Shown here: in pieces, positions 39,034 through 41,540 of the stretch | How positions within the stretch are numbered: the stretch's first letter is position 1 | How the letters are laid out: each line of letters begins with the position of its first letter | From: a virus | Virus record (IMG/VR): IMGVR_UViG_3300028534_000013 | Span: 121,868 to 176,653 of that record | DNA length: 54,786 nucleotides | Direction: 5' to 3' (one strand) | Notes under the pieces: generated by a model | The model's input: the letters and a program-made list of their open reading frames with translations, nothing else | The model's database searches: none | Told to the model about the DNA's origin: nothing | Made by a program: the position numbers and the translations under genes

Positions 39034-39495
39034 TTATTCCCTGTCTTCACAAGAATCGCATTCAAGCACACATCTTCCGTATACCGGTTCGTATGTTTCA
39101 GCGTTCGGGTCTTTTTGGAATTTTCCGTCAACTATTTTACCGGTTCTGCTGTTTATATGTTTGCCCATTTCAAGCAGCACGCATTTTGGGCAAAATCCCA
39201 TTTTAAGCATTCCCCCCACACTAAACTCGCACATATCAGCGAAAGCATCAAGAGCCATTTCATGAGTCACCGTTTCTTTTTTGAGCTCATGTTTTTCGGA
39301 GAAAGTTTCCATGAATTCGATAAATTCTTTTTTTAAGTCGTATCTTTTCTCTTTTGGAACGCTGTAACCGTTTAATTCAAACACTTCTTCAACAATATTA
39401 ACTGTTTCATTATGTAAATCAAATTTTTGCTTGTCCAGCAATCTGTCTTTCTGGAATTTAATCATTAATTTTAGAGGGCTGTTTTCACAACTCAT
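39034..39495 (-). CDS. MazG-like / PRA-PH-like nucleotide pyrophosphohydrolase (153 aa)
   Basis: EExxE (VEEVFEL), DxxxD (LDAFAD), NSR..DGKFQKD. Confidence 0.7.
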   Translation of the reverse strand: MSCENSPLKLMIKFQKDRLLDKQKFDLHNETVNIVEEVFELNGYSVPKEKRYDLKKEFIEFMETFSEKHELKKETVTHEMALDAFADMCEFSVGGMLKMGFCPKCVLLEMGKHINSRTGKIVDGKFQKDPNAETYEPVYGRCVLECDSCEDRE

Positions 39496-39596
39496 TTTTT
39501 ATCCTTTATTTTAGATTTTAGCATTATATACAATATAGCTCCCACAGGAAGCATAATTGCTAAATGCGCAGTAATATCGAACAACAATTCTTTCAT
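39492..39596 (-). CDS. Single-TM peptide missed by the track (34 aa, MKELLFDITAHLAIMLPVGAILYIMLKSKIKDKK)
   Basis: AAAGG RBS, promoter upstream, ATGA overlap with the MazG-like gene. Confidence 0.6.
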   Translation of the reverse strand: MKELLFDITAHLAIMLPVGAILYIMLKSKIKDKK

Positions 39597-39671: not shown

Positions 39672-39746
39672 AGGTCTCACGGGTAGGACTCGAACCTACG
39701 AAATGCGAAAAGAACGCACCCACTTAACCAACTCTGGCACCGTGAG
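39672..39746 (-). ncRNA. Aberrant tRNA-like RNA (anticodon position CTT, U37, ends A-CCT)
   Basis: 7-bp acceptor CTCACGG/CCGTGAG, perfect T-arm GTAGG-TTCGAGT-CCTAC, anticodon loop TTCTTTT. Confidence 0.7.
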
Positions 39747-39800
39747 AAAAAGGACCGGGGGCCAGCGTTCCGCAACCCCCGTACAACCACATTATCAGGC

Positions 39801-39873
39801 CCGCCGAGACGGGAATTGAACCAGTAACCTACCGATTAAAAATCGGGTGCTCTACCGTTTGAGCTACTCGGCG
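39801..39873 (-). tRNA. trnK: tRNA-Lys(TTT), atypical
   Basis: Cloverleaf with loop TTTTTAA; mismatches in anticodon and T stems; no encoded CCA. Confidence 0.75.
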
Positions 39874-39877
39874 GATA

Positions 39878-39932
39878 TGGTCCACATTTAACTATGTGGG
39901 AGTACCTCTTCCTACTCATTGGTAGGTGAGCA
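39878..39932 (-). ncRNA. Putative 55-nt spacer RNA ending in microhelix-ACCA
   Basis: CCACAT-AGTTAA-ATGTGG-A-CCA, preceded by a CCTAC/GTAGG hairpin. Confidence 0.4.
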
Positions 39933-40009
39933 TGGTGGGCAAGGTAGGACTTGAACCTACGACTTACCGGTTATGAGCCGGTGACTCTAACCAACTGAGT
40001 TACTTGCCC
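39933..40009 (-). tRNA. tRNA with CAT anticodon, probably Ile2 (lysidine type), otherwise elongator Met
   Basis: GGGCAAG acceptor, ACCGG-CTCATAA-CCGGT, ACCA end; paired 1-72, so not an initiator. Confidence 0.9.
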
Positions 40010-40192
40010 TGGTACCTCCGTAACGTGGAGGTGCACGGGAGCCGGGACACCTGTGGCCGTCAGGCATCCTTTTACTCCTCTTTAATAGGAGTGACTCCAC
40101 ACTTCCTCGCCAGTCTGCAGCCTGACTTTTATCGGATTAATAACCGGAAGTGCTTTATGAGACCTACTTTAATAGACCCTAAAAACACTTAC
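40010..40192 (-). ncRNA. Putative 183-nt structured ncRNA ending in microhelix-ACCA
   Basis: Multiple stems; exactly fills the Tyr-to-CAT spacer. Confidence 0.55.
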
Positions 40193-40279
40193 TGGTGGAG
40201 CGAGGTAGACTCGAACTACCATTCCCGTTAGGGACACGGATTTACAGTCCGCTGCCTTACCAATTCGGCGCATCGCTCC
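40193..40279 (-). tRNA. trnY: tRNA-Tyr(GTA)
   Basis: Loop CTGTAAA, long variable arm, ACCA. Confidence 0.95.
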
Positions 40280-40280
40280 A

Positions 40281-40356
40281 TGGCTGGGATAGCAGGGCTC
40301 GAACCTGCGACCTACCGGTTAACAGCCGGTTGTTCTGCCAACTGAACTATATCCCA
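40281..40356 (-). tRNA. trnN: tRNA-Asn(GTT)
   Basis: Loop CTGTTAA, GCCA end. Confidence 0.95.
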
Positions 40357-40460
40357 ACATCCCCCTCAAGGGGGGGGAAATGAGGTTATACAGACCAAAA
40401 CTATTTGTGAGTTAGTTGAAATTAGTAAAACAACTGTGTTACGTTACCAATAACTTCACA

Positions 40461-40536
40461 TGGCTGGGCGGGCAGGACTCGAACCTACGAATGCCAGAGT
40501 CAAAGTCTGGTGCCTTACCAACTTGGCGACCGCCCA
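40461..40536 (-). tRNA. trnQ: tRNA-Gln(TTG)
   Basis: Loop CTTTGAC, U1-A72, GCCA end. Confidence 0.95.
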
Positions 40537-40541
40537 ATAAA

Positions 40542-40633
40542 TGGCAGAGGGTGTGGGATTCGAACCCACGGAAGCTTTTACACTCCAACGGTTTTCAAGA
40601 CCGCCGCCTTAAGCCAGACTCGGCCAACCCTCT
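40542..40633 (-). tRNA. trnS: tRNA-Ser(TGA)
   Basis: Loop CTTGAAA, long variable arm, G73, CCA. Confidence 0.95.
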
Positions 40634-40637
40634 ATTT

Positions 40638-40752
40638 CGGTGACGGCGGGAAGAATTGAACTCCCCTCTTCTTGATAAGCCCGAAAGCGCTTTTACCTAG
40701 GATATTGCACACTTTCAAACTTACCAATACTACATTACCAACCAAGGCCGTC
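40638..40752 (-). ncRNA. 115-nt tRNA-like RNA with a 6/6 acceptor/T domain and an 18-bp helix replacing the anticodon arm
   Basis: GACGGC/GCCGTC, GGGGAG-TTCAATT-CTTCCC, helix 40710-40727 paired with 40672-40689. Confidence 0.7.
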
Positions 40753-40756
40753 ATAA

Positions 40757-40844
40757 TGGCGGTAGAGGCAGGATTTGAACCTACGGAGGTGTTACCCTCG
40801 ACCGGTTAGCAACCGGCTGCCTTAAGCCACTCGGCCACTCTACC
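40757..40844 (-). tRNA. trnS: tRNA-Ser(GCT)
   Basis: Loop TTGCTAA, long variable arm, G73, CCA. Confidence 0.95.
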
Positions 40845-40935
40845 ACACCCTTCCGAAGAAGGGATAAATTAAAATATAACTTGAAACACAAGGTAATAAT
40901 GACCAAACAACAAAAAATAGTTTTGTTGCATCTGA

Positions 40936-40965
40936 ATTATATCAAAAAGAATTTGGATAAATCAA
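40936..40965 (-). promoter_or_regulatory. Promoter of the tRNA array, TTGATT-18-TATAAT with TG extension
   Basis: TGA-TATAAT about 90 nt upstream of the first tRNA. Confidence 0.65.
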
Positions 40966-41204: not shown

Positions 41205-41540
41205 TTAAAACATTTTTCTTTGGTATGTTTGCATATCTGAGCGTTTGTCTTCTTTCCATTCTATGCTTATTTTAATCTCAGGCACACCTTTGTTGTTAAC
41301 CATTTCAACACTTATTCTTCTTATAAAATCATACAACCCAAGTTCTTTAGTTAGCGAAACAAACACTTCTTTTGCATCATCAACAATTCTACCGTGATTT
41401 TCAGTAAAACTAACATGGTACGGTATTTTAATTATTTTAAACTTCCTAAGCTCTGTTACTTTCTCATAATTTTCCCTTACCATAGATAATATATTAGGGA
41501 TTCTGTTTGTGAAATCTATATTTACTATCAATTCATTCAT
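41205..41540 (-). CDS. Hypothetical protein (111 aa)
   Basis: AGGAG RBS. Confidence 0.75.
   Translation of the reverse strand: MNELIVNIDFTNRIPNILSMVRENYEKVTELRKFKIIKIPYHVSFTENHGRIVDDAKEVFVSLTKELGLYDFIRRISVEMVNNKGVPEIKISIEWKEDKRSDMQTYQRKMF

Follow-up and report, generated by a model that had tools for sequence, protein, structure and literature searches.

Described counterparts of a phage tRNA array

Among the transfer RNA (tRNA) genes of bacteriophage T4, and on the same strand, lie the genes of two stable RNAs of 119 to 139 nt, C and D (species 1 and 2; rnaC and rnaD), whose role is unknown (PMC3014915). These RNAs are the nearest known case for the locus described here, which lies in the final 54.8 kb (hereafter the window) of a 176,653-bp IMG/VR record of an uncultured phage with a G+C content of ~32%. 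Between positions 40965 and 39672 of the window, the minus strand carries a tRNA operon in which seven good tRNAs are accompanied by two tRNA-shaped RNAs, one of 115 nt and one derived from a tRNA-Lys (Table 1). We propose that this operon is punctuated by RNase P sites and that the two odd RNAs are non-decoding mimics of the top half of a tRNA, an interpretation that we consider probable, if well short of certain.

The 115-nt RNA shares with the T4 RNAs its place in a phage tRNA cluster, its strand, and the combination of a tRNA-like T arm with a stem formed by the RNA ends. In T4 rnaC, a canonical T arm (GGGUUCGAAUCCC) lies beside the acceptor-like stem of its two ends, and the fold has z = -4.4; the likeness to the T4 stable RNAs drawn in an earlier note on this DNA, made from the letters alone, was therefore apt. 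However, rnaC and rnaD occupy the distal end of their cluster, whereas the 115-nt RNA stands between two tRNA-Ser genes and differs further by its 6/6 acceptor/T stack, its single 19-bp helix, and its A-CCG 3' end. A covariance model of the 115-nt RNA (R1) gave no sign of homology to rnaC or rnaD, detecting nothing at that locus and placing its best T4 hit (13.5 bits) at an unrelated site.

With the tRNA-like domain of transfer-messenger RNA (tmRNA), the 115-nt RNA has in common an acceptor stem formed by its ends, a stemless D-type loop, a T arm, and a long helix at the position of the anticodon arm. In contrast to tmRNA, it has C3:G70 instead of G3:U70, neither tag frame nor pseudoknots, and a helix closed by a loop; in view of the missing G3:U70 and of the lack of any ARAGORN or Rfam tmRNA match, this identity was ruled out. 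Y RNA and YrlA were ruled out as well: in these, a Ro-binding stem bears the tRNA-like module in permuted form, whereas the ends form an acceptor stem here, and the only Y_RNA hit was located in a different spacer, with 19 bits for a threshold of 38 bits.

Phage tRNAs are also known as counter-defences, with T5 tRNA-Lys, tRNA-Asn, and tRNA-Thr acting against AriB of PARIS, T5 tRNA-Tyr against PtuAB of retron Eco7, and tRNA-Lys against PrrC (PMC12409363, PMC11464382, PMC11555353). The Lys-UUU, Asn-GUU, and Tyr-GUA tRNAs of the array are the same isoacceptors, but Lys-UUU keeps the sensitive U36-A-A-U-C motif and the set also fits the codon demand. Regarding 3' ends, a third of the tRNA genes of Bacillus subtilis are devoid of CCA, and their transcripts are cut by RNase Z, an enzyme blocked by CCA (PMC1874595, PMC7479834). 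Lys-UUU is similar to these Bacillota genes, which depend on RNase Z and the CCA-adding enzyme (PMC1874595), in that no CCA is encoded, whereas the two mimics do encode C74-C75. Finally, RNase P recognizes its substrates by base pairing between its RNA and R73-C74-C75, and even very short hairpins are cleaved if they possess a 3' RCC motif (PMC12710915), while Bacillus RNase P relies on the CCA contact, too (PMC1874595). The layout of such model hairpin or external-guide substrates, i.e., a helix followed by 3' R-C-C(A), recurs in two 6-bp spacer hairpins plus ACCA (40032-40010 and 39899-39878), which, unlike the model substrates, are natural candidate substrates embedded in an operon.

Structure and conservation of the two tRNA-shaped RNAs

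The eight genes reported by ARAGORN lie on the minus strand from 40844 to 39673, and no tRNA gene was found beyond these across the 176,653-bp genome. With an acceptance threshold of at least 29 bits, the Rfam tRNA model RF00005 retained seven of the eight, namely Ser-GCU, Ser-UGA, Gln-UUG, Asn-GUU, Tyr-GUA, the CAU-anticodon tRNA, and Lys-UUU, with scores of 54 to 72 bits. The eighth was the Lys-derived RNA. The 115-nt RNA did not match RF00005 even at E values up to 10, nor did it match any other Rfam family.

Read from its 5' end, the 115-nt RNA starts with the 6-bp acceptor stem, followed by a D region of 19 unpaired nt, which contains GG motifs and matches a D arm in length but forms no D stem. 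A 19-bp helix capped by a 20-nt apex comes next; a linker of 5 nt then leads to the 6-bp T stem, whose loop, UUCAAUU, is canonical, and to the 3' end GCCGUC-A-CCG. Its acceptor and T stems thus add up to 12 stacked pairs, as do the 7 and 5 pairs of a tRNA. The 19-bp helix, which stands in place of the anticodon arm, is rich in G-U pairs and therefore exists only on the minus strand. The predicted fold has a free energy of -42.2 kcal/mol (z = -4.1), and none of 200 shuffled sequences was as stable.

Beyond the window, the array was found in three records, G006 (a complete 161-kb virus), G011 (an 80-kb fragment near-identical to G006 here), and L067 (a 2.1-kb metagenome contig), resulting in three lineages to compare, the window included. 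All 35 pairs of the 115-nt RNA form in all three sequences compared; five of these pairs vary, each by a one-sided change that keeps the pairing. The apical 20 nt, which contain CCUAGG, are invariant. Model R1 showed the RNA to be single-copy in the phage genome, detecting one copy each in G000, G006, and G011 and nothing in 33 other viral records, and across 151 Clostridia genomes it gave only weak hits of 20 to 25 bits, all eight examined being ordinary tRNAs.

The invariant apex suggests another role for the 115-nt RNA, that of a regulatory small RNA whose apical loop binds an RNA or a protein and whose tRNA-like ends serve only for excision and stabilization. Such an RNA would explain why the apex is fixed while the supporting helix varies by pair-preserving substitutions, and the palindrome CCUAGG could form loop-loop contacts. 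Nevertheless, sites complementary to the apical loop are not enriched in the phage genome, where they occur at chance level (one 11-mer for 1.2 expected, not at a ribosome site), and we regard this role as unlikely. The earlier note had also envisaged decoys of anticodon nucleases among these RNAs; for the 115-nt RNA, a decoy role is unlikely because it has no anticodon loop, and a better fit is either a bait for a reader of tRNA tops or 3' ends or a regulatory RNA that works by means of the invariant loop.

The Lys-derived RNA has a 7-bp acceptor stem, a class-II-like D stem of 3 bp, a canonical T arm, and the 3' end CCGUGAG-A-CCU at 39672, and its "anticodon" arm of 4 to 5 bp carries the all-pyrimidine loop UUCUUUU. 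In the window, this element lacks the purine at position 37 and stays below the threshold of RF00005, its best clan hit scoring 18 bits; the G006 copy, with the loop CCUUUUC, reaches 41 bits. A compensatory change from U2:A71 to C2:G71 in G006 is found in the acceptor stem. The "anticodon" reads CUU in the window and UUU in G006, with a 2-nt indel in its stem, and this lack of conservation argues against decoding.

Alternatively, the Lys-derived RNA could be a functional tRNA-Lys that resists nucleases and stands in for the host tRNA-Lys when a defence nuclease cuts the latter, as T5 tRNA-Lys does against PARIS. ARAGORN calls it a tRNA-Lys in both phages, the G006 copy combines regular cloverleaf dimensions with its 41 bits, the loop is devoid of the UAAU motif found beside the AriB cut site (PMC12409363), and phage tRNA-Lys, tRNA-Asn, and tRNA-Tyr are known counter-defences (PMC11464382, PMC11555353). 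The details of the arm speak otherwise: a pyrimidine occupies position 37 in both copies and a C position 33 in G006, neither the "anticodon" nor the stem length is constant, the AAG codon that CUU would read is rare (12 per thousand), and a regular Lys-UUU is present alongside. We therefore consider a resistant tRNA-Lys very unlikely. As judged from their predicted folds, both odd RNAs retain the top half of a tRNA without a credible decoding half.

The G006 array consists of Ser-GCU, the 115-nt mimic, Ser-UGA, Gln, Tyr, Lys-UUU, the hairpin, and the Lys-like RNA, without the Asn and CAU tRNAs and without the long spacers, while L067 contains the promoter, the leader hairpin, Ser-GCU, the mimic, Ser-UGA, Gln, and then a spacer starting with GTAAGT. 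The core Ser-mimic-Ser-Gln is thus common to the three lineages. Sequence identities are given in Table 1. An opposite view would make the odd elements functionless leftovers, i.e., decaying tRNA genes and recombination scars resulting from cassette shuffling at CCA ends. Cassette borders do lie at repeated CCA ends (CCCAGCCA around the spacer and Asn, ACCA around the spacer, Met, and spacer), the position of the array varies between phages, the T stem of Lys-UUU has a mismatch, and the window Lys-like copy has a 2-nt deletion in its anticodon arm and scores <18 bits versus 41 bits in G006. Yet the mimic and the Lys-like RNA are conserved like real tRNAs, whereas the leader of the same transcript has drifted to 45 to 54% identity. 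Moreover, pairing survives every stem substitution in the 115-nt RNA, the acceptor stems of Lys-UUU and of the Lys-like RNA show compensatory double changes, the apical 20 nt do not vary, and the fold of the mimic is far more stable than expected (z = -4.1). We consequently find decay an unlikely explanation, in agreement with the earlier note, which had argued against random decay from the fully paired stems: the two RNAs recur in other lineages with paired stems, pair-preserving or compensatory changes, and the same ends in CC without A.

Several points nonetheless weigh against our interpretation of the locus. Only three lineages were available, two of them close, and among their three sequences no double-sided covariation occurs inside the 115-nt RNA. 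The window Lys-like copy has a 2-nt deletion and a lower score than that of G006, which could be early decay, and the discriminator of the G006 copy is a U, not a purine. The array is placed differently relative to the neighbouring gene in G006 and its Gln and Tyr genes are 100% identical, so that a recent transfer of the array could inflate the apparent conservation. In addition, the ACCA of at least one hairpin-ACCA unit may be owed to cassette shuffling at CCA ends and not to selection, because ACCAUAU in the 58-nt spacer is homologous to the 3' end of Tyr in G006 plus UAU.

Further relatives were sought with several probes. Exact and degenerate DNA patterns run against viral, metagenome, and genome collections returned only G006, G011, and L067. 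The MazG-like gene downstream of the array yielded no relatives in a single-protein scan, and a profile scan gave 38 loci, none with an adjoining tRNA array; among the genomes of these loci, only G006 carries the array elsewhere, and 40 further records contain unrelated tRNAs. Relatives of the terminase were short fragments without the array, and no relatives of the neighbouring 476-amino-acid (aa) gene were found. The cultured-phage collection showed no similarity outside tRNA bodies; the nearest cultured terminases (Arash, Vibrio D181) have 27 to 29% identity, and those phages encode 22 to 25 unrelated tRNAs. The MazG-like gene also led to an unrelated 100-kb viral contig with a tmRNA gene (L039 2047-2367, plus strand), the tag of which is ANNTDYTGNTVLSA.

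3' ends, hairpins, and predicted processing

A promoter-like site of the sigma-70 type heads the operon ~90 nt upstream of Ser-GCU, and the relatives have TTGACA-N17-TATAAT at the equivalent relative place. No internal promoter-like site was found within the array, the next one (39650-39621) following the last element. Since the array forms a single unit from promoter to end, co-transcription and co-processing of the odd RNAs with the tRNAs are plausible. We propose a model in which a single polycistronic transcript would be initiated at this host-type promoter and cut up, for the most part by RNase P and 3' trimming enzymes of the host, supplying seven decoding tRNAs for A/U-rich codons, six of them ready-made with CCA and Lys-UUU to be completed with CCA by the host. 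The two conserved mimics would preserve the stack of acceptor and T arm, along with the T loop and the D-type loop, on which RNase P, like the CCA-adding enzyme and further binders of the top half, relies for recognition, with the anticodon arm replaced in the 115-nt RNA and degenerate in the Lys-like one.

Minus-strand reading confirmed that an N-CCA end is encoded in all six canonical tRNAs (Ser-GCU, Ser-UGA, Gln, Asn, Tyr, and Met/CAU), as the earlier note had stated, along with the ends A-CCG at 40638 and A-CCT at 39672 that it reported for the odd elements. The ends in CC without A are kept in the relatives: ACCG in three of three lineages, and GCCU as well as A/U-CCU in two of two. All 11 helical units ending in N-C-C (the 8 tRNA-shaped genes, the mimic, and the 2 hairpins) fit the R-C-C rule, the exceptions being the U discriminator of the Lys-like copy in G006 and a question of register in Lys-UUU. 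Because these units follow the rule of RNase P, the CC ends are better viewed as shared processing determinants than as a mark of mimics.

In our model, the "helix plus purine-C-C" ends, including those of the two hairpin-ACCA units, would act as determinants for RNase P and for the 3' end, given that RNase P RNA pairs with R73-C74-C75 and not with A76. The encoded CC would halt trimming, after which a host enzyme would add A76. If the two C residues are the RNase Z-inhibitory part of CCA, C74-C75 should hinder the cleavage of the mimics by RNase Z. As A76 is not encoded, a host CCA-adding enzyme must finish these RNAs; no class II CCA enzyme (Pfam PF01743) was detected in the phage genome, and no repair ligase of the RtcB or Rnl2 type was found in the phage. 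We infer that the mimics would be processed by RNase P, accumulate as stable RNAs, and have a function.

As to that function, the mimics might occupy some host factor with affinity for the tops or 3' ends of tRNAs, e.g., a defence or processing enzyme, a suggestion that we make tentatively even if the rest of the model is accepted. A related proposal, which we find quite unlikely, is that the mimics bait a host factor reading the acceptor end of tRNAs and not the anticodon, a role perhaps shared by the hairpin-ACCA units. Candidate targets of such baits include a defence nucleotidyltransferase of the AbiEii/MenT type or a nuclease acting at tRNA 3' ends, and, in a Bacillota host, a sensor of uncharged tRNA such as a T-box leader. 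If this were true, the supply of baits ending in CC without A76 would hinge on the host CCA-adding enzyme, for which they would also compete.

The spacers share a feature broader than the two spacer ends with a 6-bp microhelix plus ACCA that the earlier note had pointed out, which are indeed present. In every long spacer, a stable hairpin precedes the next tRNA by 3 to 9 nt, and in four of the five long spacers the last 30 nt before the tRNA rank among the most stable 0.1 to 1.6% of the 30-nt windows of the strand. In the leader hairpin, three of six pairs are changed on both sides across the three lineages, and 94% of cells pair. The last 23 nt of the 183-nt spacer form the 6-bp hairpin 40032-40014 followed by ACCA at 40013-40010; no relative holds this spacer, except that the L067 spacer likewise starts with GTAAGT. 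This motif opens both the post-Tyr spacer of the window and the post-Gln spacer of L067. A 26-codon frame in the 183-nt spacer (40016-40066, minus strand; GAGGAG resembling a ribosome site, 7 nt, AUG) was judged probably non-coding because it is GC-rich and runs into tRNA-Met/CAU and because its GAGGAG is the arm of a hairpin.

The 8-nt repeat CCCAGCCA flanks the block made of the 104-nt spacer and Asn (40357-40460 with 40281-40356), and ACCA flanks the block made of the CAU tRNA and its two spacers (39875-40192). Both blocks are absent from G006, and the tRNA cassettes seem, from these borders, to have been shuffled at CCA ends.

Between Lys-UUU and the Lys-like RNA, the GC hairpin 39781-39756 is followed by GUCCUUUUU (G-U-CCU-UUUU). 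The terminator pattern of a GC-rich stem and a U run is present in the window, while G006 retains the hairpin with only CUUUC behind it. The T-CCT end that the earlier note had counted together with those of the odd RNAs belongs, in the window, to a terminator-like tail, and the relative does not share it.

Decoding tRNAs, probable host, and neighbouring genes

The earlier note had also placed the element ending in G-CCT at 39797 among the non-canonical ones. Its end is indeed GCCU, but the gene encodes a good tRNA-Lys(UUU), with 62.7 bits on RF00005 (39873-39801) and the normal loop UUUUUAA. Its 3' side reads G-G-C-C-U to 39797, with CCU in register only when an eighth pair, C-1:G73, is counted, and the T stem contains a U51-C63 mismatch. 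In G006, a C:G pair of the acceptor stem is replaced by U:A, and GCCU and the trailer are kept. Lys-UUU is an ordinary CCA-less tRNA and not a mimic, as a third of the tRNA genes are CCA-less in the likely Bacillota hosts. The view of a co-processed kit of replacement tRNAs with decoy or mimic RNAs is thus partly supported: the absence of decay and the T4 likeness hold, whereas Lys-UUU as a mimic and the hairpin CCU end do not. Two further features of Lys-UUU are found in both phages: positions 27 and 43 of the anticodon stem are mismatched, C-U in the window and U-C in G006, and the possible eighth acceptor pair C-1:G73 is kept with the trailer CCUGAURAUGUGGUUGU (G006: L054 1138-1215, minus strand).

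The CAU-anticodon tRNA may be a tRNA-Ile2 rather than a Met tRNA, provided that its wobble C is converted to lysidine, a modification that retargets CAU to AUA. AUA is the fourth commonest codon of the phage (42 per thousand, compared with 24 for AUG), and the tRNA set matches the ranks of AAA (1), AUA (4), AAU (6), and UAU (7). Because of this match, codon supply accounts for the true tRNAs about as well as the idea of replacement tRNAs.

The host is likely a member of the Bacillota, as suggested by the phage tRNA-Gln. A 26-nt stretch of this tRNA occurs in the genomes of at least 120 species, and among 80 matches listed all but one (Candidatus Deferrimicrobium) are from Bacillota. Its best full-length match, 71 of 76 positions, is to a Clostridia genome from ruminant gut.

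Table 1. Features of the tRNA operon (positions in the window) and their identity to the relatives
Feature	Position	Strand	Description	Identity
Promoter-like site, sigma-70 type	40936..40965	-	TTGATT, 18 nt, TG-TATAAT	
Leader, promoter to first tRNA				54% and 45%
Leader hairpin	40848..40863	-	CCCUUC-UUCG-GAAGGG, 3 nt before tRNA-Ser(GCU)	
tRNA-Ser(GCU)	40757..40844	-	CCA encoded; ARAGORN, Rfam	88-100% (all true tRNAs)
115-nt tRNA-shaped RNA (mimic)	40638..40752	-	Three lineages; no Rfam family	88% (G006), 97% (L067)
tRNA-Ser(UGA)	40542..40633	-	CCA encoded; ARAGORN, Rfam	
tRNA-Gln(UUG)	40461..40536	-	CCA encoded; Bacillota type	100% in all three lineages
104-nt spacer	40357..40460	-	Ends in C-run/G-run hairpin 40378-40360, 3 nt before tRNA-Asn	
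tRNA-Asn(GUU)	40281..40356	-	CCA encoded; ARAGORN, Rfam	
tRNA-Tyr(GUA)	40193..40279	-	CCA encoded	100% in G006
183-nt structured spacer	40010..40192	-	Fold z = -2.7; abuts tRNA-Met	
CAU-anticodon tRNA, Met or Ile2	39933..40009	-	CCA encoded; ARAGORN, Rfam	
58-nt spacer	39875..39932	-	6-bp hairpin 39899-39882, ACCA 39881-39878, UAU	
tRNA-Lys(UUU)	39797..39874	-	CCA not encoded; 7-bp stem plus possible C-1:G73, then G-CC-U	
Trailer, GC hairpin, U5 run	39747..39796	-	CCUGAUAAUGUGGUUGU, hairpin 39781-39756, U5	70%, with indels
Lys-derived tRNA-shaped RNA	39672..39746	-	ARAGORN Lys-CUU (39746-39673); <18 bits Rfam	90%
60 nt downstream				58%

Downstream of the array, a 34-codon hydrophobic frame (39492-39596, minus strand; start MKELLFDITAHLAIMLPVGAILYIML) lies behind its own promoter-like site at 39650-39621, with a stop codon that runs into the start of the MazG-like gene (39034-39495). 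Upstream of the array lies a 111-aa gene (41205-41540, minus strand), whereas its G006 homologue, with 42% identity, is located downstream (L055 9151-9477). Either the array or the 111-aa gene has thus changed sides between the window phage and G006.

Phage tRNA genes were recently shown to counter tRNA-cutting defences, and this locus bears on the RNAs that travel with them. To our knowledge, no function has been assigned to non-decoding RNAs accompanying phage tRNA genes since the description of T4 RNAs C and D. The array described here provides a compact and conserved example, in which the top half of the tRNA is kept, the anticodon arm is replaced, and the R-C-C ends do not include the final A, with a hairpin ahead of every putative RNase P site as a further design rule. 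The locus would also help define an uncatalogued class of phage RNAs.

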